Origin: an uncultured Chthonomonadaceae bacterium
GTDB lineage: Bacteria; Armatimonadota; Chthonomonadetes; Chthonomonadales; Chthonomonadaceae
Length of the DNA: 64,000 bases
Reading direction: 5' to 3'
Assembly: GCA_963817895.1 (NCBI GenBank)
Contig: CAWFQB010000001.1
Location: 1,056,001-1,120,000, forward strand
The first letter of the stretch is position 1. Every line of letters begins with the position of its first letter. Of this stretch, positions 46,667 through 61,772 are shown piece after piece. The notes below the pieces were generated by a model that saw only the letters and a list, made by a program, of their open reading frames with translations, made no database searches and had not been told where the DNA came from. The translations under genes were made by a program, and so were the position numbers.

Positions 46667-47062
46667 TTACTTGTTGTCCTTACCCGGCTCAAAGGTACCG
46701 GCGGCATCGGGATCGGGCGTACACGACACCAGGAAGGAGCCGGCAACGCTTCCGGCAGCAATCACGTAGGTTTCGCCGCTGGGGCCGATGGGCGGGGTTT
46801 GCAGGTCCGGCTCATTGGCCGTGCTGACCGCCCCGTAGTACTTCGAGTAGTCCGCTGGCCGGTCTTTGACATAGGCGGCCTGCACCGCGTTGGCAACGGT
46901 TTGCATGTTGGCGCGGTTGGTCTTGATGCGGCTGTCTTTGACCGCGCTGAGGTACAGCGGGAGGGCAACCGCCATCAGGATGGACAGGATCAGGGTGACA
47001 ACGAGCAGTTCGACGAGCGTGAAGCCGCTGACCTGGCGGCGAACGGAGGATGTGTGAACCAT
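46667..47062 (-). CDS. Type IV pilin-like protein (prepilin N-terminal methylation motif)
   Basis: G|FTLVELLVVTLILSILMAVALP cleavage motif; AAGGAG RBS. Confidence 0.88.
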   Translation of the reverse strand: MVHTSSVRRQVSGFTLVELLVVTLILSILMAVALPLYLSAVKDSRIKTNRANMQTVANAVQAAYVKDRPADYSKYYGAVSTANEPDLQTPPIGPSGETYVIAAGSVAGSFLVSCTPDPDAAGTFEPGKDNK

Positions 47063-47551
47063 GGTGCTGAACTCCTTAAGTCCGTGTGTGCCGGCTGCAA
47101 GGCCGGGTTGATTAGCGTGTGTGTGCTTGGGTAGGGCGTTCAGAACAGGGCTTTCAGATAAGCCTGCGCAAAACGCCGGTGTGAGACAATCGCGCAAAGG
47201 CGGAAGAGATACTGCCGCTGTGCGCCTTACGATTCGATTGCGCAAATGCAGCGCAACGAGGCCGCATTCTTTTCAGCTTCGGGGCCGAGGCTGCGCGGTC
47301 AGGCTGCCGGATGGAGGAACCTGAACGCGGCGGGGTTTCTCCCACAACACCGGGGTACGCGCTTAATGACGCGACACCGGCAGGGGAGAAGATTAGTATA
47401 AGCTTCGTTTGTCATTATACATCTAGATCGGCAGTGCGTCAATAGAAAAATAGCTGACAAAACACACTGGAAATATTTCTATCCGCCGTTTTGATGTGAA
47501 CATACCCTGAGTACTTCAGTTGAGAGTGCAAAGTTTTGGCGGGAACAGCAA

Positions 47552-47611
47552 AACGCCTGAGTCGCCATACTCTCCTGCGTTCAGGCACGGGAGTATAGCG
47601 ACTCAGGCGTT
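47552..47611 (-). terminator. Terminator hairpin behind the displaced tRNA-Val 3' end
   Basis: AACGCCTGAGTCGC.ATACTC...GAGTAT.GCGACTCAGGCGTT hairpin followed by TTTT on the minus strand. Confidence 0.7.
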
Positions 47612-47620
47612 GTAAACGGA

Positions 47621-47715
47621 TGGGCAGTACTGGATTCGAACCAGTGACCTCTTCGGTGTGAACGAAGCGTTGCTCCGCAGCGTCTAACGACGCGCTTCGC
47701 AGGAGCCAACCGCCC
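47621..47715 (-). other. att site: tRNA-Val-like copy with an expanded D-arm
   Basis: 47644-47669 is identical to 58796-58821; acceptor stem intact; 10 nt of the D-arm replaced by 33 nt. Confidence 0.85.
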
Positions 47716-47799
47716 GACAGAATTTCCTTCCTCTCCTCACAAATACAGCGCTTCGTGTGTCTGTTTATCCTCCTCAATCCAACGATGAGGATGGACACA

Positions 47800-48798
47800 A
47801 TGGCAAAGACAACGCTTCGTTCTTCGACTTCGCACAGCGCTTCGTGCGACCTTAGCCTCAGCGACCTGAAACGCTACGGGGACGCCTGGTTACAGGACAG
47901 CAAGTATCGGCAACTGTCCGAACAAACCCGCTACAATCGCGGCCTGCTTATCGAGAAACTGCAATGGTGGCTGCAACAGCAGAAATGCGCCGTCTGTGGT
48001 ACGCTGGAAATCAAGCAATTCTTGGCCTATGTGGGCAATGGACACAACGAGCAAGGCGGCAGGTGGGGAAATGCCCAACTCACTCGCGCCGTGAGGCCTC
48101 GCACGGTCAAGGACTATCACGGCAACCTACGCACCTTCTTCAAGTATCTGGTGGAGGAAGGCTATCTGGACGTTTCGCCAATGGAGAACGTCAAGCCGCC
48201 TGTCTCTCGCGCTGACCAGATTGTACCCTTCACACAAGAGCAGGTCAACGCCCTGCTACAAGCGGCAAAGACCGGCAATGCTCCCCTGCGCGATGAGGCG
48301 CTGATTCTGTTCCTGATGGATGGCGGCGTCCGTGCCAGCGAGCTATGCAGCCTCACCATGCAGGATATAGACGTGGTAGGCAAGCGGGCTACGGTGCTAG
48401 GCAAGGGGAACAAACATCGAACCGTGTACTTCGGGCGCGACACTTCCCGCGCTGTGATGCGCTATCTCAAAACAGAGGAACGCAAGCCCTCCGATCCGGT
48501 TTTTAAGTCCGAACGGGGAGAGGCGCTTACCCGGTCTGGTTTGCTCCAACTGATCCACAGGCTCGGACGTGCCGCCAAGATCGAAGCAACGCGCTGCTCA
48601 CCCCACACCTTCCGCCATACCTTTGCCGTCGAGTTCCTACGGGGAGGGGGACAGGTCTTCGCGCTCCAGCAAATCCTCGGACATACTCAACTTGGCATGA
48701 CACAGAAGTACGTCGCCATTGCTCAGGCTGACGTCCAGAACCAACACCTGCAATTCTCTCCCGTCGAGCGCCTACGGAACAAGGGAGGGCGCAAATGA
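47800..48798 (+). CDS. Tyrosine recombinase / integrase
   Basis: R (GVRASE), K (GKGNK), HxxR (HTFRH), H (LGH), Y (QKYV); adjacent to att site. Confidence 0.95.
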   Translation: MAKTTLRSSTSHSASCDLSLSDLKRYGDAWLQDSKYRQLSEQTRYNRGLLIEKLQWWLQQQKCAVCGTLEIKQFLAYVGNGHNEQGGRWGNAQLTRAVRPRTVKDYHGNLRTFFKYLVEEGYLDVSPMENVKPPVSRADQIVPFTQEQVNALLQAAKTGNAPLRDEALILFLMDGGVRASELCSLTMQDIDVVGKRATVLGKGNKHRTVYFGRDTSRAVMRYLKTEERKPSDPVFKSERGEALTRSGLLQLIHRLGRAAKIEATRCSPHTFRHTFAVEFLRGGGQVFALQQILGHTQLGMTQKYVAIAQADVQNQHLQFSPVERLRNKGGRK

Positions 48799-48923
48799 GC
48801 ATCCAGCGCTACAAGTCCGGGCGCTACTGGGCTGTCTACGATGAACACGGAGAGATGATCTGCCTGTGCGTATACAAGAAGGGCGCATTAGAGGTCGTAA
48901 GAAGGTTATTAGGCTGTGATTAG
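48795..48923 (+). CDS. Small 42-aa protein coupled to the integrase
   Basis: MSIQRYKSGRYWAVYDEHGEMICLCVYKKGALEVVRRLLGCD*; ATGA overlap with the int stop, GGAGG RBS; below the ORF-track cutoff. Confidence 0.65.
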   Translation: MSIQRYKSGRYWAVYDEHGEMICLCVYKKGALEVVRRLLGCD

Positions 48924-48998
48924 AGGAGATTTATATCAAGCTTACTGTTGGTAGACAAACTAAGGCGTGTGATATCTATACGCCTCATGACAATTGTA

Positions 48999-49028
48999 TT
49001 GACATGAGTATGAGGAGTGTGCTAATCT
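48999..49028 (+). promoter_or_regulatory. sigma70 promoter upstream of the structured RNA / cargo operon
   Basis: TTGACA-18 nt-TAATCT with an extended TGn element. Confidence 0.65.
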
Positions 49029-49046
49029 TTCTTTACTCTATCTATT

Positions 49047-49344
49047 AGAGGATTTAGAATAAGTGCCGACGCGGTCAGTGTTTGTCCTGTGCGGAGTAGT
49101 TTCGGTTACTATCAGAGGCTGATTCCATTCTCTGAAAAGCCTTGAAGACACTAGGATGGACTTATTCTAAAGCCTCTTAGGACTTACGCGGTTGTTGCTC
49201 ACTGTTTAGCTTTTTCGAGATAGAAGCGTTTTGGCAAAGCTGTGAACATCTGTTATTTTGTGCCTCTCACAGGTGTGCAAACAGTTCCAAAGCAAGGCTG
49301 ATGAGATTGCGCCCCTATGGTGAGCAGCAATTGCGTAAGTCCTA
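49047..49344 (+). ncRNA. Putative structured non-coding RNA with two multibranch domains
   Basis: Stem 49047-49064/49160-49177 (17 of 18 pairs) and stem 49178-49205/49317-49344 (28 pairs including G-U), each enclosing internal hairpins; no ORF of 60 aa or more. Confidence 0.72.
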
Positions 49345-49397
49345 TCTATATCAGCGTATATACTACCAGCTTGATACCAGCGTAAGGAGCCGTTAAC

Positions 49398-50222
49398 TTG
49401 AGTGATCTTCCTACCATAACAACTTACGACGCATGGGTGTTAAAAGAATTAGATATAGATCTAACCTTAGATACCCAAATAAGGCAATACGACAACGATA
49501 TTGTAACAGCTAAATCAACTGTGACGAGTCACCCGTTTTTTCAAAATTTAGCTGGTTTTGTTGAAGATTGTTGTATGGATTACAAAGATCAAGTAGGGGC
49601 AGACTTGCTCATGAACAAATTTGAACTATCAATTGTTTCTAAAACATATAAATCATCTATCAACAAAAGTTACCGAATGAACATTGTCCTCAATAAAAAT
49701 CTTCCTGGCCCTCCATCTTCTGGATGGATATCGCCCGAAAACTGGTACGAGGAACTCAACGATCTATTACGAACTCGAATAACCTGTAAGTTTATTGATG
49801 GTCCTCAATATTTATCAAATCGGCTAACCGAATATGCAGCAACGCATGGATTGGACTTAAATTTTAGGTCTCAGCAGAAAGACGGTGGCTACTATGCTTA
49901 CCACTGCTATGTCCATATTGATGTACCACTGCTAAAACATTCTGCGACTGGCCGTGTTGTATATGACGTAAAAATGTCTGTTGAAATCCAGTTAACAACG
50001 CAACTTCAAGAAGTTCTTTATGATCTTACCCATCCGATATACGAAGCGTTGAGAGTCAAACCCGAGCAGGATCCATCTGCATGGAAATGGGATTACAAGT
50101 CAGATAGATTCAAATCTGGTTATATGGGACATACTCTTCATATGCTAGAAGCAATTATTCTGGAAATCAGAGATAACAACATTACTTCGGCTAAGGTTCA
50201 GGAGAACGAAGATGTCAAATAA
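49398..50222 (+). CDS. RelA/SpoT-like (small alarmone synthetase-like) nucleotidyltransferase
   Basis: SKTYKSSINK, NDLLRTRI, GYYAYH, VEIQLTTQLQ correspond to SYN motifs 1-4; TTG start with TAAGGAG RBS. Confidence 0.72.
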   Translation: MSDLPTITTYDAWVLKELDIDLTLDTQIRQYDNDIVTAKSTVTSHPFFQNLAGFVEDCCMDYKDQVGADLLMNKFELSIVSKTYKSSINKSYRMNIVLNKNLPGPPSSGWISPENWYEELNDLLRTRITCKFIDGPQYLSNRLTEYAATHGLDLNFRSQQKDGGYYAYHCYVHIDVPLLKHSATGRVVYDVKMSVEIQLTTQLQEVLYDLTHPIYEALRVKPEQDPSAWKWDYKSDRFKSGYMGHTLHMLEAIILEIRDNNITSAKVQENEDVK

Positions 50223-51870
50223 ACATAGTATGATCCCTTCTCCAGAGGTTGTACATTTAACAACAGTATTCCGGCGAATACAGAATGGTGAAATTCGTAT
50301 ACCAGCGTTTCAACGAGGATTTGTCTGGGAAGAAGACCAGATTATCAAACTTTTGGAAAGCATTTTTAAAGGCTATCCAATAGGAAGTCTTCTGTTTTGG
50401 AAGGTGGATAAAGCAGGCGATACTGTGTTGAATGTTTTAGATGAGAGTTCTGACTCTGACAACACCCTTGTGCCTTTCCCTCATATTACACTCACATTTC
50501 CAGTAAATTATGTGTTAGATGGTATGCAGCGTCTTTCGTCGTTGTATGGGGTATTCCTTGCTGCTACAACTAACGATAGTTTTAACGTCGTTTTTGATCT
50601 GGAAAAGCGGGAGTTTATTTATGACGATCAGAGAAAGCTTGTAGCACCTCGTTTCTTGAACCTATCAGATTTATTCGCACCACGCCGCTTACTTGATGCG
50701 CAACGTTCTATGACTGAACAAGACAATGGCGAAATTTTGATTGACAGTTCCATCGAACTTCTTTCTTCGTTCCAAGAATATATGCTACCAATTGTAACGA
50801 TCTCGACAGATAATGTAACTGAGGTAGTTGAGATATTTGAAAGAGTGAATAGTACAGGCACAAAGTTGAGCAGAGTGGACTTCATGCGGGCTTTAACGTG
50901 GTCTGACGGCTTTGACCTAAATGTAGCCTTACGAAGTATTAAGGAGGATATCCTTCTTCAAGGATTTGTGTTCCCATATGAAACATTGACCAAAGTAGTC
51001 GCAATTCTGCTCGGCAAGAGTCCAACACCAACTTCAATGCTTGAACTTCGAAGTTTTTCATCCGATGATCTTCACGAAGGTGTTATGAAAGCGAAGATGT
51101 ACCTATCCGATGTAACTGGATTTTTGAGAAACGAGTTTAGTATTTACTCTTCAGATTTCGTACCGTATGAGGGGCAACTTCTCGTTTTGGTTAAATTGTT
51201 TGAACAACTTAGTTACTCATGGATAGATGACGGAACTGCCAAGCAAGTGATTTCTACTGCAAGGGAATGGTTTTGGAACACTAGTTTCAGTGAAACATTG
51301 CGGGGTAAGCCCGACGGATACGTCATTCGAGAAATACAGAGCGCAGTAAATCTTACGAAGGGTGATCTTCGTGCTTTACCTTCAAAGCTGCTGCTTGACG
51401 ATGACACACTGCGTGAACGGCGCTTTACCAAAGGCAAAGCATTGTCGTCAGCTATAGCTGCGCTATTCGCTAGTAACAAAGCACGAAGCTTAGTAACTGG
51501 TGAAGTAATACCACCAGAAAAATATATGACTGATTTCAAAGTGGAAAATTTTGAGGCGATATGTTCCCAAAAGGCAGTCCAAGCATCAACTATTCGCAAA
51601 GTTTCATCTCCAAAAGTATTGGCGAACCTTTGTGTGGTGTTGGATACGGATAGAAAGTCATATAATCCGTTTAATCCACATGCGTTACTCCTATCAGTTT
51701 ATGAACGGTTTGAGCCTGAAACAGCCGACGAAATTCTTCGATCCTTGTTTGTGGACGATCAAACGTTCTATATCCTTAAAGGTGGTGACGAAATAGATTT
51801 TCTGAGACACCGCTCTGCTAATATGCTTATGGCTGCTGGAAGAGTCAATCGAGACACACGCACGTCCTAA
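50212..51870 (+). CDS. DUF262 (ParB-like / GmrS-type) domain protein
   Basis: IPAFQRGFVW, LLESIFKGYPIGSLLFW, VLDGMQRL, IFERVNSTG; overlaps the upstream stop. Confidence 0.88.
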   Translation: MSNKHSMIPSPEVVHLTTVFRRIQNGEIRIPAFQRGFVWEEDQIIKLLESIFKGYPIGSLLFWKVDKAGDTVLNVLDESSDSDNTLVPFPHITLTFPVNYVLDGMQRLSSLYGVFLAATTNDSFNVVFDLEKREFIYDDQRKLVAPRFLNLSDLFAPRRLLDAQRSMTEQDNGEILIDSSIELLSSFQEYMLPIVTISTDNVTEVVEIFERVNSTGTKLSRVDFMRALTWSDGFDLNVALRSIKEDILLQGFVFPYETLTKVVAILLGKSPTPTSMLELRSFSSDDLHEGVMKAKMYLSDVTGFLRNEFSIYSSDFVPYEGQLLVLVKLFEQLSYSWIDDGTAKQVISTAREWFWNTSFSETLRGKPDGYVIREIQSAVNLTKGDLRALPSKLLLDDDTLRERRFTKGKALSSAIAALFASNKARSLVTGEVIPPEKYMTDFKVENFEAICSQKAVQASTIRKVSSPKVLANLCVVLDTDRKSYNPFNPHALLLSVYERFEPETADEILRSLFVDDQTFYILKGGDEIDFLRHRSANMLMAAGRVNRDTRTS

Positions 51871-52023
51871 TGGACAAACCAGATAAAGATTGTACTATGG
51901 CGGGGTTCCGAGTGTTGAAAACACCCGTCTGAGTGGCGTTCCGCCAAGCGTCCTACGGACGCGGGATTGTACAATGTTCAAGTGGTTTGTCCATAAGTTT
52001 ACTATTCTGCGTTTGAATACTGA

Positions 52024-52278
52024 TCAGTTATCCATTTCTTTCAGCAAGTTTTCATACCTTTGTACGAACTCCACTAACCCAACCCCTAGTGCCTGACAGA
52101 CCTCCCGCAATTCAGGGAGGTCTAGTATTCTTTCTCCCGACTCGAACCTGCTGACGAACGACTGCGGTTTGCCGAGACGTTTGGCAAGGTCAACCTGCGT
52201 CAGACCAGCATCACGCCGAACCTGACGAAGTAAAGATTGTAGTAATTCCTGCTGAGGCGTGTAGAGAGACTTTTGCAC
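52024..52278 (-). CDS. XRE-family helix-turn-helix regulator
   Basis: RRDAGLTQVDLAKRLGKPQSFVSRFESGER. Confidence 0.9.
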   Translation of the reverse strand: MQKSLYTPQQELLQSLLRQVRRDAGLTQVDLAKRLGKPQSFVSRFESGERILDLPELREVCQALGVGLVEFVQRYENLLKEMDN

Positions 52279-52374
52279 CCCTCATTGTAGAAACTACGGT
52301 CGCAATATGCAGGAATTAGATATTTTCAGGAGAATACTAGGCATGAGCAGATTGCAACACACAGGAGGGGAATA

Positions 52375-53502
52375 ATGCCGACACTTGGAGAGGTCAAAGA
52401 GCAGATCAAGCGTGCTGATGGAAAAGATACTTTCCTCACTTGGAGAGAAGTACAGGACTTGCCGAATGTCCTAGCTGATGGCGAGACTATCCAGAGGGTA
52501 GCACAAGCAGGGTATAATGGCGTGACAGGTATGCTGTTGGCGACAGATCAGCGCCTTATCTTCATCAAAACGAACCTTCTGAACAAAGCAATGGTCCACT
52601 CTTACCCCTTCTCCAACATTGCTTCTCTCAACAGCAAGCCGGGTTTGCTATTCACTACTTTCAACATCGGCTTGTCTGACGGCGATTCTGTCATAATCCA
52701 GACGATTGCAAATGTCGTGGCACAGCGCATCTGTGACTATGTTCAGCCTCGTATCGGCGTCACAAGTCCGCCACAGACAGTCCAGAGCAGCAATATGACT
52801 TCCGAACTGGAACGATTAGCGAATTTACGGCAGCAGGGACTTTTGGATGAGCAGGAGTTTGCAGATGCCAAACAGCAGATCATAGCGAAACAGCCTAGGT
52901 TTCCACCCGCCGACATACGCTTGCCTAGTCTCCAGACGCCACATCAGCCCGTCTCTCCACAAAACCATACAACACAACCTGCTACGCCTTCACCTACGCC
53001 GCAAAGGACTCTAAAAAAGAGTACGATAAACAATATCTTTACTGCATTAGTGCTTTCTCCCATCTTCTGTTTCGCAGCGTATGTCATGATTTCTGACATG
53101 CGCGGTTCCTCGCAGACCAATATGACAATGAGTAGATCGTCTACGACCGCTACAACAGAAACGCCTGCTCCGGCTCCTGCTGAACCCGTAAAGCCATCGA
53201 AACCTGATCCAAAAGACAGTCCGGCCTTCAAGAAGAAGTTTGCGGCGTTGCTCGATAACCTGCGAGGTATCAGCGGTGTGACCGATGCAAAACAATTTGA
53301 CTGGGATCATTCTATGGGAACAATCAACGTATACGTCCCGGTCGGTACGAGCAAAGATCAGGCACGGGAAATAGCATCCGAGGCGTATCGCGAGTTTGTA
53401 CTGGTGCGGACGCCGTTCTATGGGGAAGATGCTGATAATTGTCAGATCGGAATACGGGATACAGATGAGCGTCTAATTCTTACGCGTAATAACCTGTGGT
53501 AG
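52375..53502 (+). CDS. Bacterial PH-domain + SHOCT + TM membrane protein
   Basis: LLATDQRLIF (bacterial PH-like), ELERLANLRQQGLLDEQEFADAKQQII (SHOCT), one TM helix; GGAGG RBS. Confidence 0.78.
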   Translation: MPTLGEVKEQIKRADGKDTFLTWREVQDLPNVLADGETIQRVAQAGYNGVTGMLLATDQRLIFIKTNLLNKAMVHSYPFSNIASLNSKPGLLFTTFNIGLSDGDSVIIQTIANVVAQRICDYVQPRIGVTSPPQTVQSSNMTSELERLANLRQQGLLDEQEFADAKQQIIAKQPRFPPADIRLPSLQTPHQPVSPQNHTTQPATPSPTPQRTLKKSTINNIFTALVLSPIFCFAAYVMISDMRGSSQTNMTMSRSSTTATTETPAPAPAEPVKPSKPDPKDSPAFKKKFAALLDNLRGISGVTDAKQFDWDHSMGTINVYVPVGTSKDQAREIASEAYREFVLVRTPFYGEDADNCQIGIRDTDERLILTRNNLW

Positions 53503-53523
53503 AGGTAGACTTCTACAATTCAA

Positions 53524-53560
53524 AGGGAGGTTCTAATCCAGCAGGTTAGAACCTCCTTTT
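53524..53560 (+). terminator. Intrinsic terminator
   Basis: GGAGGTTCTAA...TTAGAACCTCC followed by TTTTT. Confidence 0.7.
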
Positions 53561-53575
53561 TCCCGTACACCGCCA

Positions 53576-53899
53576 TTACATAAGGCTCTGGTATCTGCCT
53601 GTTCCGGCGACGGCTTGCAGAACGTCGTTCGCCTGTGCCTGTGAGCGCAAGGCAAGTGTCTGCTTACGGAGTGCCTGCGCTTTCTGCCAGAGTTCTTTCG
53701 TGTTACGGTCTACCCGTAGAATCGCCTCATGTGGGTCTGTAAGTTCGCGTACACGTTGGTACGTAGCTTCGGCTATACGATGCGTTTCCTGTCGAACCTT
53801 CGGAAGTTCCCTCTGTGTCGCGCTATTCAGGCGTTGTGTCTGCGCTTGGAGCGTCGGTAGCAGCGCGTCCAGTTCGGCTTCGATTTCTTCGTAGTTCAT
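53576..53899 (-). CDS. Hypothetical coiled-coil protein
   Basis: ATG with AGGAG RBS; helical composition. Confidence 0.55.
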   Translation of the reverse strand: MNYEEIEAELDALLPTLQAQTQRLNSATQRELPKVRQETHRIAEATYQRVRELTDPHEAILRVDRNTKELWQKAQALRKQTLALRSQAQANDVLQAVAGTGRYQSLM

Positions 53900-54219
53900 C
53901 GTTCGTTCTCCTGTGTCTAGCAATGCGGGTAAATAGGGCAGCAGTGTGTTTAAATTGGTTCTGCCCTGAGTCTGTCACAGAACACGTACAAACGCACATC
54001 TGATGTCATATCAATCACCCCTGTCATATCGCTCTATTTCATGATATACCCCTCCCTCATGATATACCCTTCCACTTTCGCATGATGCCTGAGTGCTTCT
54101 ATTAGACGGCTAATTTTATAAAAGTCGCGGATGATGGAAACTGCCATACAGGAGGGAGACCCTTCCCCCTTATAGCCCCCTCTCTTGGAAATGAGGAGGG
54201 GGAGGTTACGTTTTCGTTC

Positions 54220-54852
54220 TTACTTGCTTACGGATACGCGGAGTACCTTCTGGTCGAGGAGTATCTGCATACCTCTGGCAAACCCATACAGATACGCCTC
54301 TGAAGACGGTTCCGCTTTGCAGTTGTACAGGTCGCCGTTCGTTCCGTACTGTTGATCTGCTGCGAGACGCAGATGATCGCGCATCTTCTGGACAGCCCTA
54401 CAAGCGCGACTCAGAGTAGCGACTGAGCGCTGACTACACGGCACCTTCTGCAATAGCCTGTGTAGTGCCAGAAGACCTTTCAGCAGGCAGAGTGTCTCGG
54501 CGCTTAGGCGCTTGTGGAGGTCACGCGGAATGCCTATCTTGCGTCCAGTAGGAGGTTGCACAAGGATGTCCTCAACGGCATAGGCCCATAAGACGAACTC
54601 TGTTGTCCCGATAGCCTGATCTTGGTAGGGCATTTCCGTGTCCCAGTGTGCCGCTTCGAGGTCACAGTACAGGTTGCTCAGTTGCAGGCTTGTGAGCCGA
54701 CTCTGGCGGATAGGAACCGATACGCCCGACAGGACATTCGTGAGCGATTCTGCAAGGCTGCCCATGCTCTGAGACAGCGCGAGAATCTCTTGTCGCAGGT
54801 GTTTCTTCGGTTTGGTTGTCGTCAGAGATATTTTCTTGAGAGTTGGTGTCAT
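54220..54852 (-). CDS. Hypothetical protein
   Basis: ATG with AGGAG RBS, 210 aa, co-oriented with the primase gene. Confidence 0.55.
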   Translation of the reverse strand: MTPTLKKISLTTTKPKKHLRQEILALSQSMGSLAESLTNVLSGVSVPIRQSRLTSLQLSNLYCDLEAAHWDTEMPYQDQAIGTTEFVLWAYAVEDILVQPPTGRKIGIPRDLHKRLSAETLCLLKGLLALHRLLQKVPCSQRSVATLSRACRAVQKMRDHLRLAADQQYGTNGDLYNCKAEPSSEAYLYGFARGMQILLDQKVLRVSVSK

Positions 54853-54901
54853 GCTCTGCTTGCTCCTATATCGCAATTATTGCGATACATTCCATATGCG
54901 C

Positions 54902-55258
54902 TCACGAGGAAAGGCAGGCCTCATAAGCCTCTGGCGCGTTTGTCTGTCTCGGCATGTCCAAGAGCCTTACCAGACAAATCGCCGCTTGCAGATCAGGTTG
55001 GCGGGTGTATACGCGGACAGTCTCGCCTGTGGTGTCGTCCTGTTGGTCGAGGTACTCTCCTCGCGCCAGATAGATAATCCCATCGAGAATATCAGGCAGA
55101 TGATCGGTGACACGCTTGCGAACACGGAGAGCGACATTCGCGAACCGCTCACGTTTTGGAACTGGGCCAGAATTGAGTGCTGCCCCTGCCCGAATGTGAA
55201 TAGGCCTCGTTTCTCGTGATTCTAGAGTTTGCATAATCGTACCTTTCCTGTGTGTCAT
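54902..55258 (-). CDS. Hypothetical protein, possibly terminase-small-subunit-like
   Basis: LARGEY...VRVYTRQPDLQAAICL recalls the PDxxAA motif of some TerS-like proteins; weak. Confidence 0.4.
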   Translation of the reverse strand: MTHRKGTIMQTLESRETRPIHIRAGAALNSGPVPKRERFANVALRVRKRVTDHLPDILDGIIYLARGEYLDQQDDTTGETVRVYTRQPDLQAAICLVRLLDMPRQTNAPEAYEACLSS

Positions 55259-55430
55259 GGGGTATGTTAGGGTATGTTAGGGCATGTTTCGGCCTCCCCT
55301 TACCCCGGTTTTATAAAATTATAGTTTGTGTTTTCACCTTATGACGGAAGTTGAAACATACCCCCTCTAACGGAGTGTCTCAGTTAATCGCAGGTTTCAA
55401 AGAGTATCGTGCGCCATTTTTCGTTGGATG

Positions 55431-55506
55431 GCGTCTTTAGCGTTTTAAGCGTCCAAAGGTTAGAAGATATAAAACGCTTAAAACGCTAAAGACGCTAGAG
55501 CGCAAT
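55431..55506. repeat. Iteron-like 9-bp repeat cluster (putative origin)
   Basis: 22-bp perfect inverted repeat 55431-55452/55474-55495 built of TAAAACGCT / TAAAGACGC units. Confidence 0.75.
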
Positions 55507-55513
55507 CGGTTTA

Positions 55514-57859
55514 TCATTTTTCCTCTTCCTCTGTATCATCCTCATGGATGATCGTCCAGAACTCGCGAGGCCGTCCGTCCGTCTCCTCCTTTGTGCATGT
55601 TGCTAATCCATTTCGCTGGAGAAGCTCTAATGCTGTTGTCAGACGCGCCGTTGTGATATGCTTTTGGAATACGTCGTCGCGTATGTCCTTTCGACTCATG
55701 CCCTCTGTTGAACGCAGAGCAGATAGGACTTTCTCTGAATCCTTGTTGCCAAGAGAAGTGCCAAAAATGAAGGCAGCCGAGGCGTCGCAGTATTGCCAAA
55801 CGGCGAGAGCCGCCTTGAGATGTGCGGTGCATATCGTTTCCGACTTGTCCAACAGTGCGTAGAGCATAGATAGGCGAAGAACCTGAGCTTCTGCGCGGGA
55901 GGTAACATGACCGAGAACTCCCTCCCGATCTTCTGTGAGTGTCGGGTAAATTTCGCACCATAAAGCTCGTGCGCCCTCATCACGCTTAATCTCACCTGCG
56001 GATGAGGCAAAAGCAATTACTTCATGTAGTACCTGCCGCAGCGAAACAATATCCGACTCTGGAAGGTTTCCACCTTCTGGAAGTAGCTTTGACCGTTCAG
56101 AGCAAATCCAGAGGAAACGGTTGGCGAATCCGTTGAATAGATTGCTGCCTTTATTCAAGCATTGAAGCAACTCCTCTCTCGTGATATGGCCTACGATAGA
56201 GATATGAGCGTCTGTTGCGCAGTCGGGATTTGTCTTGGTAAGGTTTTTCAGGTTGCCACTGTCCCAAGCTTCTCTCAACACGGAAGATAGTTTGTTTGTG
56301 TCGCGTTCCATAACTTGCAACACGCCTGCGAATTCCGTTTCCTTATCGAGTAGGCGCTTATCGCTCACGCCGGGAACCATCACGGCTTCGTATTCCTTCT
56401 TTCGCTTATCGTAAATATGTTCTGTTCGATCATCCCTCACATGGTAAACAAGACCTTCGCCAGATGCCAGACCTCCCTTGATACAGGTCTTTACCCATCC
56501 GGTGCTGCCATCGTCTTCACTGAAAAGAGCGAGTATGAGGTCTAGACCTGTGCCTTTTCTTCCTCGTGAGGACTGCCCGACTGTCGCGCAAAATAGGTTA
56601 GTGTGATGTTTGGTAGCGCCTACCTTGAAGAAGGCCTTTCGGCCTATTCGGTTGCCGAAAGCCACTAGAAACTGCACAAGGAGAGCCGTCGAGTCGGCTT
56701 CTGTATGCGGCGCAAGTGTCTTGAGAACTTTTCCTACCAGACCATAATGCGCTTCTTCTGGTAGTGCCTCAGGCCATATCGAAATCATTTTTCTATTGCG
56801 CTCTAGCGTTTTAAGCGTCTTTAGCGTTTTATCTCCTTCGCCTATTTGCTCCTTTGTTTGACTTTGGACGCTTAAAACGCGGTGAGGAGAGTAGAAATCT
56901 GCTTCTCTTTTCCCCTCGTAAGCTTTGTATATCGTGCCACGCAAATACGTCGTATCTCCTCGTGCTGAATCGTACTTTTCACGGAATAGAGCGGATGCGT
57001 ACATGAGGCGCTCAACCTGCTCGTGTCCATCCTTTCCACAGTAGAAGGCGAGCTTACTGCATAGAGCAAGATCGGCGCGGCTGTCGTCGTCGTCATAGTC
57101 GCTAATGTCGCCGTCGTCGAATAGCCTCTTGAACTTGTCCCCGTTCTTCTCGTTCCTTGCCAATTTAAGCACAGCCATATCGGGGATTAGATCGCGCTCA
57201 CGAGCAGGGAAACTTTCTGAGCTACCGGCAATCAAATCCTCGACGACGCTCTCTCCTGAGAGTTCCTTGTACAGCGTCTGGAATTCATCGGTTCGCTCTT
57301 CAACGGTTGCCGGAGTGCCAGGCCAACGAACGCCCGTTACAGTAAAGTATCGCGCCTGTGTGTACATCTCGACTATGATGCCACCACAACTCCCCTTGCG
57401 CCCTTTGTGGTTTCCTTTAACTTTCACGAAGATGTGCAGGCCTGTACCAGACGGGCTGACTTCGGTGTAAGAGTCAAGCCGATTGACGATTTCCTGTGCT
57501 TTAGGACATATCTTCTGTCCTGTTGCGTCAATGACTTTATCGAGATCGATGCCCACGATATCATTCTCTTCGCTGAAGACGTAACCTATCCCCTCGTAGG
57601 TATGCCGGGACAAAGCTTGCTGCGCCTTCTCGAATGTCGCCCAATCTGACGGTTCCATAGTGGAAACTGCCCCTCCGTGTAGGGCTGAGTAGGGAACCTT
57701 CGTAGTTTTTTCTCCTCGTGTTTCTCGTTGCCACCCTACCCAAGCCTTGTGGTTTTTTAGTTCGTCAGGGACACATTCGTATCCATCTGTTTTAGGCATC
57801 AAAGTTCGCACTTGTCTTTTTACGGTCGAAATTTTAACCATTATCTGCGCCTCTTTCAT
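55514..57859 (-). CDS. Phage/plasmid primase-polymerase fused to a DUF3987-like helicase domain
   Basis: TKVPY, IVGIDLD, YTEVSPSGTGLHIF, EMYTQARYFTVTG (prim-pol); DDSRAD; GQSSRGRKGT Walker A-like; LREAWDSG, GFANRFLW. Confidence 0.85.
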   Translation of the reverse strand: MKEAQIMVKISTVKRQVRTLMPKTDGYECVPDELKNHKAWVGWQRETRGEKTTKVPYSALHGGAVSTMEPSDWATFEKAQQALSRHTYEGIGYVFSEENDIVGIDLDKVIDATGQKICPKAQEIVNRLDSYTEVSPSGTGLHIFVKVKGNHKGRKGSCGGIIVEMYTQARYFTVTGVRWPGTPATVEERTDEFQTLYKELSGESVVEDLIAGSSESFPARERDLIPDMAVLKLARNEKNGDKFKRLFDDGDISDYDDDDSRADLALCSKLAFYCGKDGHEQVERLMYASALFREKYDSARGDTTYLRGTIYKAYEGKREADFYSPHRVLSVQSQTKEQIGEGDKTLKTLKTLERNRKMISIWPEALPEEAHYGLVGKVLKTLAPHTEADSTALLVQFLVAFGNRIGRKAFFKVGATKHHTNLFCATVGQSSRGRKGTGLDLILALFSEDDGSTGWVKTCIKGGLASGEGLVYHVRDDRTEHIYDKRKKEYEAVMVPGVSDKRLLDKETEFAGVLQVMERDTNKLSSVLREAWDSGNLKNLTKTNPDCATDAHISIVGHITREELLQCLNKGSNLFNGFANRFLWICSERSKLLPEGGNLPESDIVSLRQVLHEVIAFASSAGEIKRDEGARALWCEIYPTLTEDREGVLGHVTSRAEAQVLRLSMLYALLDKSETICTAHLKAALAVWQYCDASAAFIFGTSLGNKDSEKVLSALRSTEGMSRKDIRDDVFQKHITTARLTTALELLQRNGLATCTKEETDGRPREFWTIIHEDDTEEEEK
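56795..56880. repeat. Second iteron-like cluster inside the primase gene
   Basis: Inverted near-copy of 55440-55506; encodes KTLKTLKTLER in the interdomain linker. Confidence 0.75.
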
Positions 57860-58046
57860 AAAAGTGAGCGGGACGGGCGCATTCGTCCCGCTCTGTTCTG
57901 GGGATCAACCAGAACACTGTTGTTGCTTTTTCAGAGGAAACCTCTACTGCGCCAGCAACTTGCCCAACGTGTATTTATATCTACTATTAGTATCCCTCCT
58001 TTTCATGGTTTACTCTGATAATCTAACAATAATATATTATTAGATT

Positions 58047-58388
58047 TTAGTTCAGATCAGATTTAGCACCTCTTGGGATGACTATGCTCGGATTGAGTTG
58101 TTGGTACTTGGCAATGTCCATCATGACTTCAGCCAAGACAAATTTCCCCAAAAACTCCATTTGATCCGTCACCGTCAGGAATTGTTCTTGCAGGCGAGTT
58201 CCGTAGGTGGTAATTACGTCGTCGCCGTAGGAACAACTCCGGTTTTCTAACAAGCGATGCAACTCACGCATTGCTTCTGCGTTTTCTCGAAAAATGCTAA
58301 TGGCGCTTCGCATGTGCTTACTGATGTTCTCCAGCATTTCCACCTTGTTGCTATTCACCAGCACTTCCATCTTGTTCTCTTGAGACAT
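58047..58388 (-). CDS. Hypothetical protein
   Basis: 113-aa ORF with GGAG RBS, upstream of the primase gene. Confidence 0.6.
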   Translation of the reverse strand: MSQENKMEVLVNSNKVEMLENISKHMRSAISIFRENAEAMRELHRLLENRSCSYGDDVITTYGTRLQEQFLTVTDQMEFLGKFVLAEVMMDIAKYQQLNPSIVIPRGAKSDLN

Positions 58389-58578
58389 GGTTTTCTCCGA
58401 TCTCTTCTGAGTCGAATCGAGCCAGTTATGGCTCAGAAATCATAACAACCTTTTTATATTAAAATTGGGGCCATAAACGCAAAAAGGCCGAGACGATTCA
58501 CAATTAATGAATCGTCCCGACCATGATTTTCAGTTGTTCTGTAAAGGCTAAATTTTAATATAAAAAGGTTGCAAGATT

Positions 58579-58607
58579 ATTGTACAGTAGCCATAGGAGT
58601 TTGTCAA
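58579..58607 (-). promoter_or_regulatory. sigma70 promoter of the element's replication operon
   Basis: TTGACA-17 nt-TACAAT on the minus strand. Confidence 0.7.
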
Positions 58608-58772
58608 GCAAAGTTTTGAAAATCGGAAGAAACAGATGGAACAGCGGTTGAGAGGACGCCCAAGACAGCGCTTCGTATGGCATAATAAAGGACGTAGGCA
58701 GCGCTTCGTTCGCGCAGTTCTACGCCCTTTAGGAAGATAGACAGACACAGATTTGTGAGGAAGAATCGGAGA

Positions 58773-58844
58773 TGGGCAGTACAAGATTCGAACTTGTGAC
58801 CTCTTCGGTGTGAACGAAGCGCTCTACCACTGAGCCAACCGCCC
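58773..58844 (-). tRNA. tRNA-Val (anticodon CAC), CCA not encoded
   Basis: Full cloverleaf GGGCGGT-TG-GCTC-AGTGGTA-GAGC-G-CTTCG-TTCACAC-CGAAG-AGGTC-ACAAG-TTCGAAT-CTTGT-ACTGCCC-A. Confidence 0.97.
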
Positions 58845-59015
58845 CAGACTAACACTGTCTCATATTCACGAAACTTTTGGCTGAACGGGCGCGGACGCCT
58901 GAACAGCAGAAAAGATTGAATATAGGATACTCTTTTTGAGCGCGATTGTCAAGAGTTTTTGAGGACGAAAATCAAGGATGATACCCCCTGTCCTTTTGTT
59001 CGAGGAGCCTTTCCT

Positions 59016-61772
59016 ATGAAGTTCGCCGCATGCCTGTGCTTGCTGTTCACCCTGGCCGCGCCCATTGTTGCCGCGCGGAACTCCGTTTCCGGGGAGGTTT
59101 CTCTGATGAAGTCGGCTTCCATAACATCGGCTACAGGGAAAGTGTCTGCCCTGAAACCTGTTTCTCTACGATGCGAATATGGAGAGGACGGTGTGGATAC
59201 GCCTGCCCCGCGCCTGAACTGGCTGCTTGCTGCCGACAAACGGGCGCAGAAACAAACCGCTTACCAGATTCTGGTGGCTTCCAGTGACACACCCCTGGCA
59301 CAGGGGCAGGGCGATTTGTGGGACACGGGCAAAATTGGATCAAGTTCGAGCGGGCATATTCTGTACGCGGGCAAACCGTTGCAATCCGGCCAGTATTGCG
59401 CGTGGCGGGTGCGGGTATGGGACCAGAATGATGCCATGTCGGAGTACAGCCCTGCCGCGCATTGGACAATGGGACTACTGCATCCCGGCGACTGGCGCGG
59501 CAAGTGGATCGGGCGTACAACGGATACCGCCTATCAGCCCGCGCCCTATCTGCGCCATGCGTTCGCGCTAAAAGGAAAGATTGCGCGGGCAACCGCTTAT
59601 GTGTGCGGTTTGGGATATTACGAACTGCATTTGAACGGGCAGAAAGTGGGCGACCACGTTCTTGATCCGGGCTATACGCGCTACGACCGCCGCGCTCTGT
59701 ACGTCACTTACGACGTTACGAAAGCATTGAAAGCCGGTCAGAACGCGGTTGGTATCGTATTAGGAACGGGTTGGGAGAACGTTCATACCCGCGCCGTGTG
59801 GTACTTCGACCGCGCCCCGTGGAGAGCCGCGCCCAAAGCCCTGCTGGAAATGCGCGTCGAGTACGCGGACGGCACAACGGAAAACATCGTCACGAACGAA
59901 AACTGGAAAACTTCAACCGGCCCGATTGTGTACGACAGCATTTATGGCGGGCAGACGTATGACGCGCGATTGGAACTGGCCGGATGGGATAAACCCGATT
60001 ACGACGACAGCCGTTGGCAAAACGCGCTTGCGGTGGCTCCTCCCGGCGGCAAATTGACATCACAATTTTGCCCGCCGATTCGCGTCAAGACGGTTATCAA
60101 GCCCGTCAGTGTGACCGAGCCGAAACCGGGCGTGTGGCTGTTCGACATGGGGCAGAACTTTGCCGGTTGGGCGGAACTGCGCGCGTCCGCGCCGAAGGGA
60201 ACCAAAATTACCCTGCGCTATGGCGAACGTCTGGGTTCGGATGGCACTCTGGATCAATCCCACCTTGCGCAGCATCTTGTGAAAACCGAACCGCCGCAGC
60301 GATTCCAGACGGACGAGTACATCTGCAAGGGCGGGGGAACGGAAACGTGGCATGCGCAGTTCTGCTATCACGGCTTTCAATATGTGGAATTGACCGGCTT
60401 TCCGGGCAGGCCCACTCTGAATACTCTGCGTGGCCTGTTTCTTCATTCGGATGTCGCGCCGACCGCCGAGTTCGCGTGTTCCAATCCCCTGCTCAACCGC
60501 ATCTGGCAGGCAACTCGCATGTCGTACCTGAGCAACCTGCAAAGCATCCCGACCGATTGCCCGCACCGCGAAAAGAACGGCTGGACGGGGGACGCGCACC
60601 TTGCCGCCGAGTTCGGCCTGCTGGCTTTCGACAGCGTAGGCGTGTACGCCAAATGGGTCAACGATCTGGACGACGAGCAAAAAACGACGGGAGAACTGCC
60701 CGGAATCGTGCCGAGCAGCGGGTGGGGTTACGAGTGGGGCAATGGGCCGGCATGGGACAGCGCGTTCGTGCTTATTCCGCGCTACTGCTACACATACTCG
60801 GGCGATGGGCGCATTTTGGAACAGCACTACGCGGGCATGAAGCGGTACGTGGATTACCTGACCACGCGCGCAAAGGAGGGCATTGTATCCATCGGGCTTG
60901 GCGATTGGGTTCCGTTTGAAACCGAAACCCCGGTCGAAGTCACGTCCACCGCGTACTATTACCGCGACGCGCTGCTCGTCGGACTGCTGGCCGCGCAGTT
61001 GGGAAACAGTGAGGACGCGCAAAAGTACAATGCTCTCGCCGCGCAAATCAAAACCGCGTTCAACCGGCGCTTTTATCACCCCGAAACGGCAACCTACGCC
61101 AACGGCAGCCAGACCGCGTTAAGCTGCGCTTTGTATCAGGGATTGGTGGAACCGGAGAACCAAGCCGCTGTAGTGAACTCGCTCGTGGCCGCAGTGGAAA
61201 AGCGCAACGGGCATATTGACACGGGCATTTTGGGCGCGAAGTACATTTTCCACGCCCTGACGGAGGGCGGGCGGGCGGATGTGGCGTACCGGATCGCGAA
61301 CCAGAAGGACAAGCCGGGTTGGGGCTGGTGGCTGGAACAGGGCGGCACAACGCTGTGGGAAAGCTGGGGCGGCACGGATTCGCGCAACCACATCATGTTC
61401 GGCGACATCAGCGCGTGGTTCGTGGAAACCCTCGTGGGCATCACGCCGGACGCGCCCGGTTTCACCGCTATTCGTATCCAGCCCCACATCGTCGGCGACC
61501 TGACCGGCGCAAGAGCGCAACTGCAAACCGCGTCCGGCCAGGTCACAAGCGACTGGCAACGGGAAAACGGCAGCCTGCGTCTGTCCGTGGAAATCCCCGC
61601 CAACACGACCGCGACCGTTTATGTACCCGCTTCCGACACTGCCCTATGTCAGGAGGGCGGCAAACCCGCAGCGCAATCCGAAGGCGTCCACTTCCTGCGC
61701 CGCGAACCCGGCTACATCGTCTACGCCGTCGCGGGCGGCAAATACGAGTTCACCAATCGTCTTGAACCATAA
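59016..61772 (+). CDS. Alpha-L-rhamnosidase (GH78)
   Basis: FDMGQNFAG, YHGFQYV, PTDCPHREKNGWTGD, GLGDW, TTLWESW, SRNHIMFG; signal peptide. Confidence 0.93.
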   Translation: MKFAACLCLLFTLAAPIVAARNSVSGEVSLMKSASITSATGKVSALKPVSLRCEYGEDGVDTPAPRLNWLLAADKRAQKQTAYQILVASSDTPLAQGQGDLWDTGKIGSSSSGHILYAGKPLQSGQYCAWRVRVWDQNDAMSEYSPAAHWTMGLLHPGDWRGKWIGRTTDTAYQPAPYLRHAFALKGKIARATAYVCGLGYYELHLNGQKVGDHVLDPGYTRYDRRALYVTYDVTKALKAGQNAVGIVLGTGWENVHTRAVWYFDRAPWRAAPKALLEMRVEYADGTTENIVTNENWKTSTGPIVYDSIYGGQTYDARLELAGWDKPDYDDSRWQNALAVAPPGGKLTSQFCPPIRVKTVIKPVSVTEPKPGVWLFDMGQNFAGWAELRASAPKGTKITLRYGERLGSDGTLDQSHLAQHLVKTEPPQRFQTDEYICKGGGTETWHAQFCYHGFQYVELTGFPGRPTLNTLRGLFLHSDVAPTAEFACSNPLLNRIWQATRMSYLSNLQSIPTDCPHREKNGWTGDAHLAAEFGLLAFDSVGVYAKWVNDLDDEQKTTGELPGIVPSSGWGYEWGNGPAWDSAFVLIPRYCYTYSGDGRILEQHYAGMKRYVDYLTTRAKEGIVSIGLGDWVPFETETPVEVTSTAYYYRDALLVGLLAAQLGNSEDAQKYNALAAQIKTAFNRRFYHPETATYANGSQTALSCALYQGLVEPENQAAVVNSLVAAVEKRNGHIDTGILGAKYIFHALTEGGRADVAYRIANQKDKPGWGWWLEQGGTTLWESWGGTDSRNHIMFGDISAWFVETLVGITPDAPGFTAIRIQPHIVGDLTGARAQLQTASGQVTSDWQRENGSLRLSVEIPANTTATVYVPASDTALCQEGGKPAAQSEGVHFLRREPGYIVYAVAGGKYEFTNRLEP

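Follow-up and report, generated by a model that had tools for sequence, protein, structure and literature searches.

The 64,000-nucleotide (nt) stretch of DNA analyzed here (hereafter, the window, numbered from its first letter) covers positions 1,056,001 to 1,120,000 of contig CAWFQB010000001.1 in the genome assembly GCA_963817895.1 of an uncultured Chthonomonadaceae bacterium. It harbors an integrative island whose cargo includes two overlapping genes, referred to below as open reading frames (ORFs) 1 and 2, which code, respectively, for a divergent enzyme with the fold of small alarmone synthetases (SAS) and for a DUF262 protein of the GmrSD/BrxU type. These genes represent the conserved unit of the locus and probably encode a two-protein toxin or defense module akin to the toxic SAS (toxSAS) systems, a function that we infer from the comparisons described below. 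The base-paired leader in front of them consists of two abutting miniature inverted-repeat transposable elements (MITEs). A previous interpretation of the same DNA, made from the letters and ORF translations only (the sequence-only reading), had described the locus as a tripartite system in which a structured non-coding RNA (ncRNA) joins the two proteins. Its account of the genes (two overlapping genes at 49398-50222 and 50212-51870, the first coding for a RelA/SpoT-like protein and the second for a DUF262 protein, in an AT-rich locus between the integrase and the regulator of a tRNA-integrated element) has been borne out, and its RNA component has not.

A conserved pair of translationally coupled genes

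ORF1 (49398..50222, plus strand, 274 aa) starts with a TTG codon, and its 3' end overlaps by 11 nt with ORF2 (50212..51870, plus strand, 552 aa). A word-indexed search retrieved 53 relatives of ORF1, the best non-self match being 50% identical, and a genome scan for ORF1 homologs gave 87 confirmed loci, 80 of which were kept. Besides many bacterial phyla, the hosts of this family include several lineages of archaea. Clustering of all ORFs within ~5 kb in the 80 loci revealed only three conserved groups: the ORF1 family itself, the DUF262 family, and a family of 145-aa proteins. A member of the 145-aa family lies directly downstream of the ORF1 homolog in 47 of the 80 loci and a DUF262 protein in 23, so that one of the two partners occupies this position in 70 loci, its start usually overlapping the stop of the ORF1 homolog by 4 bp. 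No third conserved gene was found in these loci, the next most common neighbor being present in just 3 of them. The DUF262 partners come in two forms, a full-length one of ~520 to 555 aa, as in the window, and a DUF262 domain of ~220 aa without the C-terminal domain, which serves as the partner in 8 to 10 related loci. Thus, the conserved unit consists of ORF1 and a translationally coupled partner, which is the DUF262 protein in the clade that includes the window, and the pairing proposed in the sequence-only reading is kept as a unit across phyla.

The type of the partner tracks a deep division in the phylogeny of ORF1. A quick maximum-likelihood tree, supported by the Shimodaira-Hasegawa-like approximate likelihood ratio test (SH-aLRT) only, was built from 66 of the 81 sequences (the other 15 were dropped for being shorter than 240 aa or having a stop in the crude ORF call). 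In this tree, a split with an SH-aLRT value of 98 separates a clade of 22 sequences, of which 13 have the long DUF262 partner, 8 the short one, and 1 is unassigned, from a clade of 44, of which 38 have the 145-aa partner and 6 are unassigned.

The 145-aa partners (loci L020 to L079, e.g., L041:6768-7205) share a KASxENC motif and are encoded in both bacteria and archaea. They have no match in Pfam or PADLOC and are unrelated to the DUF262 family in a profile comparison (probability of 0.3%); the Atlas feature search returned unnamed clusters and an unconfirmed DUF3908 lead scored at 0.94. In one locus, the SAS-like gene is followed by a gene for a 541-aa pentapeptide-repeat protein (L073:6707-8332) in lieu of the partner, and in another, a NUDIX hydrolase gene (L004:2754-3302) is located 133 nt upstream of the SAS-like gene.

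Pfam families encoded within ~5 kb were scored in 22 DUF262-type loci (140 proteins). Half of these loci (11 of the 22) have neighbors from families associated with toxin-antitoxin (TA) systems, defense, or mobile elements, including PIN, HipA, SIR2_2, AbiEi/AbiEii, and HerA, as well as an Eco57I-type methylase, AAA_15/21, integrases, and TnpB. Targeted full-text searches of the literature found no description of a SAS-like/DUF262 pairing, and the pair is not present as a system in PADLOC v2. The sequence-only reading had not recognized the architecture among described systems; this holds for the pairing of the two proteins in the literature searched, and the three-part arrangement with an RNA fails for the reasons given below.

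ORF1, a divergent protein with the SAS fold

The matches of ORF1, the putative effector or toxin, to the Pfam RelA_SpoT family (E value of 0.0082; 16.9 bits, with a cut-off of 27) and to the NCBIfam YjbM model (15.7, with a cut-off of 320) are both below threshold, and its affiliation is seen in structural and profile comparisons. The best Foldseek matches of its AlphaFold2 model (predicted local distance difference test [pLDDT] score of 92.2) are RelP and RelQ (E value of 5.2e-10, TMt of 0.65 to 0.70), and a search of the PDB with the family profile returned YwaC, RelP, and RelQ with E values from 6e-6 to 1e-4. In the profile alignments, D122, the GYYAYH motif, and E196 of ORF1 coincide with the synthetase motifs of YwaC and RelP. 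The first of these residues (in NDLxR) and the last (in EIQLTT) are invariant in 30 sequences of the ORF1 family; the Arg of the canonical ExQxRT-type motif is replaced by Thr in ORF1. As judged from the model and these motifs, ORF1 adopts the synthetase fold of RelA/SpoT proteins and retains both catalytic residues, Asp and Glu. An N-terminal helical extension (residues 10 to 66) is specific to its family.

A hidden Markov model of the family, run against 1.84 billion proteins, found 719 representatives at E values of 0.001 or less, of which 547 remained at 1e-10 and 367 at 1e-30. By this profile, the family is small and distinct from the canonical RelA/SpoT proteins, which are very numerous. 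No longer, fused forms of ORF1 were seen among 1,273 candidates, which is weak evidence by the method's own rating.

ORF2, a GmrSD-like protein without a conserved nuclease His

Residues 17 to 228 of ORF2, the putative partner, regulator, or antitoxin, match the Pfam GmrSD_N domain (E value of 4.1e-31), and the D103, G104, Q106, and R107 residues of its DGxQR nucleoside triphosphate (NTP)-binding motif are invariant among the homologs. Over its full length, the protein resembles BrxU: the structural model (pLDDT score of 81) retrieved BrxU in Foldseek (E value of 1.4e-10), and comparison by VIA gave a Z score of 16.9 with a root-mean-square deviation (rmsd) of 18.9 over 472 aligned residues (9 to 547 of the model against 1 to 579 of BrxU). 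For the C-terminal domain of SspE, the respective values were a Z score of 9.2 and an rmsd of 5.2 over 278 residues.

In the nuclease region, ORF2 has no Pfam DUF1524 domain, and beyond residue 300, no His position is invariant or nearly so among 12 homologs. The available text of 10.1101/2024.01.29.577857 describes the nuclease motifs DHIYP and EHICP of BrxU and HEC-06 as needed for defense. Since ORF2 lacks a conserved His where these proteins require the motif, its nuclease is probably inactive.

Among PADLOC models, the one that best accounts for ORF2 is PDC-M55C (E value of 9e-57, residues 4 to 538 of ORF2 against 5 to 526 of 554); the single-gene models of GmrSD-like proteins, HEC-05, HEC-06, and SspE, match its N terminus only. 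The PDC models represent candidates proposed on the basis of "guilt-by-embedding" (Payne et al., 10.1101/2024.01.29.577857, in the part available). Components A and B of PDC-M55 were absent among the five island proteins tested; ORF1 and three others had no PADLOC match. Comparison with PADLOC, which had been suggested for this locus, thus produced an answer for ORF2 and none for ORF1.

A predicted complex of the two proteins

When ORF1 was modeled together with residues 1 to 235 of ORF2, the median run reached a score of 0.65, compared with 0.00 for the best of three controls. Among solved complexes, 116 of 157 attained this score, as did 2 of 215 mismatched pairs, a calibration that holds only roughly because custom alignments were used. 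The contacts agreed by 100% between runs, and the partner pLDDT was at least 79. On the ORF1 side, the predicted interface is formed by the N-terminal helices (residues 29 to 49), residues 76 to 78, and the hairpin at 177 to 188; on the ORF2 side, by residues 12 to 21 and 155 to 188. There was no SAS-DUF262 complex among the structural matches, so the score is unlikely to reflect the memory of a solved complex. The modeling therefore supports direct binding of ORF1 to the DUF262 domain of ORF2.

The leader consists of two abutting MITEs

The leader in front of ORF1 comprises 369 nt and lacks ORFs of at least 40 aa. The segment 49029-49400 has a predicted folding energy of -129.9 kcal/mol, compared with -100.8 +/- 5.8 kcal/mol for 100 dinucleotide shuffles, none of which folded equally well (z score of -5.02). 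The ~300 nt of strongly base-paired non-coding sequence described in the sequence-only reading are therefore real, and what changes is their origin. Pairing rests on two long-range inverted repeats, I4 (49047-49064 and 49160-49177; 18 nt, 94%) and I2 (49178-49202 and 49320-49344; 25 nt, 88%). The opposite strand also folds well (z score of -3.1), as DNA inverted repeats would do, and the leader contains neither a tandem repeat nor an Rfam family.

These repeats are the ends of two transposable elements. Repeat I4 delimits MITE-A (49048..49176), which is 129 bp long and non-coding, has terminal inverted repeats of the IS5 family, and lies between two TTA duplications (49045-49047 and 49177-49179). 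Repeat I2 delimits MITE-B (49180..49342); this non-coding element of 163 bp shares its ends with a DDE-transposase insertion sequence and has a TA on either side (49178-49179 and 49343-49344). When 42 genomes from the same family were searched with the query 48924-49397 (E values of 0.01 or less), 8 of them, counting the source genome, gave matches, and all non-self matches fell on the stem arms, none on loops or flanks. In other genera of the family, these arms bound transposase-bearing elements. In L093, the ends of stem 1 enclose an 877-bp element of the IS5 type, with TTA on both flanks, whose genes code for DUF4096 and DDE_Tnp_1 proteins. The stem 2 sequence is found in L095 and L094, where, identical in 21 of 21 positions, it makes up both ends of a ~1.06-kb element with TA flanks that encodes a 333-aa DDE_Tnp_1/DDE_5 transposase. 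Further examples of stem 2 include a ~165-bp non-coding element (L090) with both stem 2 ends and partial internal similarity and, in another genome (G037), occurrences 121 to 141 nt from two contig ends, as is typical of assembly-breaking repeats. The source genome itself contains four more inverted pairs of the stem 1 end motif, 131 to 143 bp apart, compared with 1+2 hits for a reversed-pattern control; three of the four are identical copies with TAA or TTA flanks.

Thus, the "structured RNA" of the leader is two abutting MITEs, and its hairpins are transposon ends. The TTA/TA junction shared by the two elements fits an insertion of MITE-B at TA, followed by that of MITE-A at the adjoining TTA. 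With both elements taken out, an AT-rich leader of ~70 nt is left.

A third element, MITE-C (51871..51993, 123 bp, inverted repeat I1), is located right behind the genes. Its terminal inverted repeat is 32 nt long (81%), its flanks are the TAA at 51868-51870, which is the stop codon of ORF2, and the TAA at 51994-51996, and the region folds with a z score of -2.9. Seven other copies in the source genome are 98 to 100% identical to it over 51867-51997 (e.g., C1:460888-461018), so this ~131-bp repeat family has at least eight near-identical copies in that genome. The ~58-nt core of MITE-C is a separate and far more abundant repeat, with many copies in 20 of the 42 family genomes. No parent element of MITE-C was found. 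All three elements have terminal inverted repeats and target-site duplications and are small and non-coding, lacking any ORF that reaches 40 aa; ends in common with a transposase-encoding element were found for MITE-A (L093) and MITE-B (L095, L094). Three MITEs at one locus, along with the copies of MITE-C, point to a host rich in such elements, three of which have accumulated in AT-rich intergenic regions of the island.

A resident 1,150-bp insertion sequence is represented in the source genome by 12 or more intact copies that hardly differ from one another (for example, G000 C4:766151-767122, or L124 1450-2599); its DDE transposase of 359 aa is 30% identical to that of L095. A link between this insertion sequence and MITE-B or MITE-C was considered and rejected: the ends are different, and no convincing connection was found.

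The hairpins of the leader are not conserved with the genes. A blastn search of the leader against the 80 homologous loci gave chance matches of 14 to 25 nt only. Upstream sequence of 300 nt or more was available for 74 loci; when these 300-nt regions were each compared with 20 shuffles, z scores of -3 or lower were obtained for 5, including 2 of the 21 DUF262-type loci (L012 and L013). The upstream regions of L012, L013, L015, and L019, when inspected, showed only short local hairpins or palindromes, with no long-range helices.

Signals for the expression of the pair can be recognized around the MITEs. A putative promoter on the plus strand (48999..49028), read directly from the sequence, has a TTGACA box (48999-49004), an 18-nt spacer, and a TAATCT box. 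The promoter that the sequence-only reading had placed here is therefore legible; its -10 box is weak, and a consensus scan did not list it at the threshold used. The ribosome-binding site AAGGAG (49384..49389, plus strand) precedes the TTG start of ORF1 by 8 nt. An imperfect palindrome, I9 (48985-49002), overlaps the -35 box and is a possible operator for the helix-turn-helix (HTH) regulator of the island.

Possible function and alternative explanations

In the proposed mechanism, ORF1 would be the effector, or toxin, pyrophosphorylating a nucleotide or the 3' end of a tRNA, as the known toxic SAS do. The N-terminal DUF262 domain of ORF2, which binds ORF1 in the predicted complex, would hold or release it, acting as an antitoxin or a sensor, and the intact ParB-type NTP-binding motif of ORF2 could serve as the switch. 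With its former nuclease domain apparently lacking the catalytic His, ORF2 would have passed the role of the output to ORF1; conceivably, the dead nuclease domain could still sense DNA. The tRNA-Val island would carry the module as cargo, most likely for a TA function or for defense by abortive infection. An island of foreign composition, together with the TA, defense, and mobile-element neighbors of related loci, forms a pattern that resembles the TA and defense modules built on toxic SAS, in which antitoxins are swapped freely, according to the available portions of PMC7229694 and 10.1101/2023.03.22.533649. A more specific version of this scheme is tentative and rather doubtful. It would make the pair a new two-component anti-phage system in which a nuclease-less GmrSD-type sensor, with its NTP switch kept, controls a SAS-fold effector in trans, so that sensing of an infection leads to growth arrest through pyrophosphorylation of nucleotides or tRNA; in the sister lineages of bacteria and archaea, the sensor would be replaced by the unrelated 145-aa protein.

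Several observations weigh against the toxSAS-like module and the MITE origin of the leader. The Foldseek matches of ORF1 to toxic enzymes (CapRel, 2.9e-4; Tas1, 1e-3; FaRel2, 1.8e-3) are weaker than those to RelP and RelQ, and ORF1 matches no PADLOC model even at an E value of 10. About half of the DUF262-type neighborhoods consist of ordinary housekeeping genes, and among the 11 loci with TA, defense, or mobile-element neighbors, three Nostoc-type ones with PIN neighbors are kin and do not count as independent. The ORF1 tree has the limits given above, the score of the predicted complex is the confidence of a model and no measurement, and the missing conserved His speaks against nuclease activity of ORF2 without proving its loss. 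As for the leader, the source genome contains no further complete copy of MITE-B, just one 22-nt match resembling its end; the IS5-type transposase was not found in that genome, which is 81% complete; and the MITE hairpins, being in the 5' untranslated region, may affect expression of the genes.

The idea that ORF1 is a non-toxic regulatory synthetase similar to RelP and RelQ, with the DUF262 protein as its allosteric regulator in a stress-signaling unit, stays in play because these non-toxic enzymes are the closest to ORF1: housekeeping SAS provide both its closest folds and its only sequence-profile matches. The share of housekeeping neighborhoods favors it too, as does the suggestion, made in the available part of Jimmy et al. 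2020 (PMC7229694), that SAS enzymes may form a continuum of toxicity. It is nevertheless rather unlikely, given the patchy distribution of the family over bacteria and archaea with 719 clusters in all, the tight coupling to a partner that can be replaced by an unrelated protein, and the carriage on an integrative island of foreign composition, with TA, defense, or mobile-element neighbors in half of the related loci, features that are typical of conflict systems. A selfish addiction cassette, that is, a TA pair that stabilizes the island and has no anti-phage role, would agree with the two-gene TA operon architecture on a mobile element and with the lack of PADLOC matches to ORF1. The present data do not separate addiction from defense; toxic SAS systems described in the literature can confer protection from phages, as far as the available text of 10.1101/2023.03.22.533649 and PMC11559606 goes, and a role in addiction alone appears distinctly unlikely.

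Two further explanations were weighed. If ORF2 were the effector, a type IV restriction enzyme of the GmrSD type directed at modified phage DNA, ORF1 would be an accessory protein. Such a role would agree with the full-length structural likeness of ORF2 to BrxU, SspE, and DndI and with the matches of its N terminus to the PADLOC models of HEC-05, HEC-06, and SspE; it is made highly unlikely by the lack of DUF1524 and of a C-terminal His that is at least nearly invariant in the 12 homologs, by the 8 to 10 related partners reduced to the DUF262 domain, and by the unrelated 145-aa partner of the sister clade. The tripartite system, in which the ~300-nt leader would be a dedicated ncRNA acting as antitoxin, scaffold, decoy, or sensor, has been largely refuted and is very improbable indeed. 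Retrons and type III TA systems do have RNA components, the sense strand of the leader folds very strongly, and its location between a plausible promoter and the genes makes co-transcription probable. However, the helices are transposon ends, complete with target-site duplications, that elsewhere are attached to transposase genes; the antisense strand folds as DNA repeats would; no Rfam match, tandem repeat, or, in the 11 island ORFs scanned, reverse transcriptase was detected; and the homologous pairs have no similar leader and no conserved structured RNA, the very outcome that the sequence-only reading had singled out as incompatible with its proposal.

Relation to known systems

Among the systems compared, the toxSAS modules (FaRel, FaRel2, PhRel, PhRel2, and CapRel; PMC7229694, in the part available) share with the locus a small single-domain enzyme of the synthetase fold in which the catalytic Asp and Glu are kept, an operon of two genes whose overlapping partner is swappable, an association with mobile elements, and direct binding, which is predicted here by the model. 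Unlike them, ORF1 is below the Pfam RelA_SpoT cut-off, carries the extension at residues 10 to 66, and is nearer to RelP and RelQ; a DUF262 partner is unmentioned in the available text of PMC7229694 and 10.1101/2023.03.22.533649. With the GmrSD family (BrxU, PDB entry 7p9k; SspE; DndI; HEC-05 and HEC-06), ORF2 shares the DUF262 domain with DGxQR and the full-length fold of BrxU, whereas it has no DUF1524 domain or conserved [DE]H motif, is encoded after a SAS-like gene, and has relatives among the partners that are cut down to the DUF262 domain. The multi-gene candidate PDC-M55 (10.1101/2024.01.29.577857, as far as its available text describes it) has in component C a nearly full-length counterpart of ORF2, whereas its components A and B are unmatched in the five island proteins tested.

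The elements of the leader resemble IS5-family and other DDE-derived MITEs in having shared ends, TTA, TAA, or TA duplications, a length of 123 to 163 bp, no coding capacity, and several copies. They are ordinary in all respects except that two of them abut in a 5' leader and mimic a structured ncRNA. The likeness of the locus to retrons, defense-associated reverse transcriptases (DRTs), and type III TA systems lies in the non-coding region, structured or repeated, in front of the effector genes; the locus differs from them in having no tandem RNA repeats, Rfam match, or conserved structure and no reverse transcriptase in the 11 island ORFs scanned.

Two consequences follow. Abutting MITEs in a 5' leader can give folding z scores as strong as those of real ncRNAs; therefore, when long near-perfect helices are seen beside cargo genes, they should be compared with the repeat families of the genome before an RNA component is proposed. 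Furthermore, the ORF1 family offers a lead, as a rare and distinct family of the SAS fold found in many bacterial and archaeal phyla with two unrelated coupled partners. Should it prove to be a toxic pyrophosphokinase under the control of a nuclease-less GmrSD-like protein, two well-studied classes of defense proteins would be newly linked, as far as the literature searched goes, and the pair would provide a tractable case of a sensor domain re-used with a new effector.

The island and its other features

The gene pair is cargo of a tRNA-integrated element. The island, ~11.1 kb long as measured between the tRNA-Val half-repeats, is bounded by a 51-nt direct repeat, 92% identical, of the 3' half of tRNA-Val(CAC), with one copy at 47619..47669 (minus strand) and the other at 58771-58821. 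The latter forms the 3' half of the tRNA-Val(CAC) gene at the other boundary (58771..58844, gene 58773-58844, minus strand), which was identified by ARAGORN, Rfam, and the repeat itself. At the former copy, ARAGORN predicts a weak whole tRNA-Val (47621-47693); the Rfam tRNA score is 32.7 bits there versus 70.8 bits for the copy at 58.8 kb. The T-stem of the fold at 47621-47693 has compensatory changes relative to the 58.8-kb copy. The GC content is 0.385 to 0.445 over 48800-51999 and 0.55 to 0.62 in the flanks.

Next to the partial tRNA copy, the island encodes its tyrosine integrase (47755..48798, plus strand; Pfam Phage_integrase, E value of 3.2e-38), for which NCBIfam matches of the XerC/XerD type fall below the cut-offs. 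On the other side of the gene pair are an HTH_3 regulator of the Cro/C1 type (52024..52278, minus strand; Pfam, 1.5e-14) and, adjoining it, a 375-aa protein (52375-53502) with bPH_3 (bacterial PH) and SHOCT domains in Pfam and no match in PADLOC. The replication protein of the island (55514..57859, minus strand) combines an NrS-1 polymerase HBD with a DUF3987 helicase-like region (Pfam, 2.7e-18 and 2.6e-06) and is a primase-polymerase of the NrS-1 type.

A search for public sequencing runs that contain 48700-52100 found none, RNA runs included. An Rfam scan of 47000-60000 at E values of 1 or less returned the two tRNAs and sub-threshold matches of microRNA models to hairpins, with none in the leader. 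One of these hairpins (47550-47613; E value of 3.4e-5, below gathering) adjoins the partial tRNA-Val copy and could represent a terminator or else a further inverted-repeat element. Another, of ~70 nt (55428-55499), lies directly downstream of the primase-polymerase gene and is matched by several microRNA models on both strands, although even the best match (E value of 0.016) is far below gathering. Part of this hairpin, 19 nt long, occurs again at 56801-56819, and the hairpin may function as an origin of replication or belong to another repeat element.

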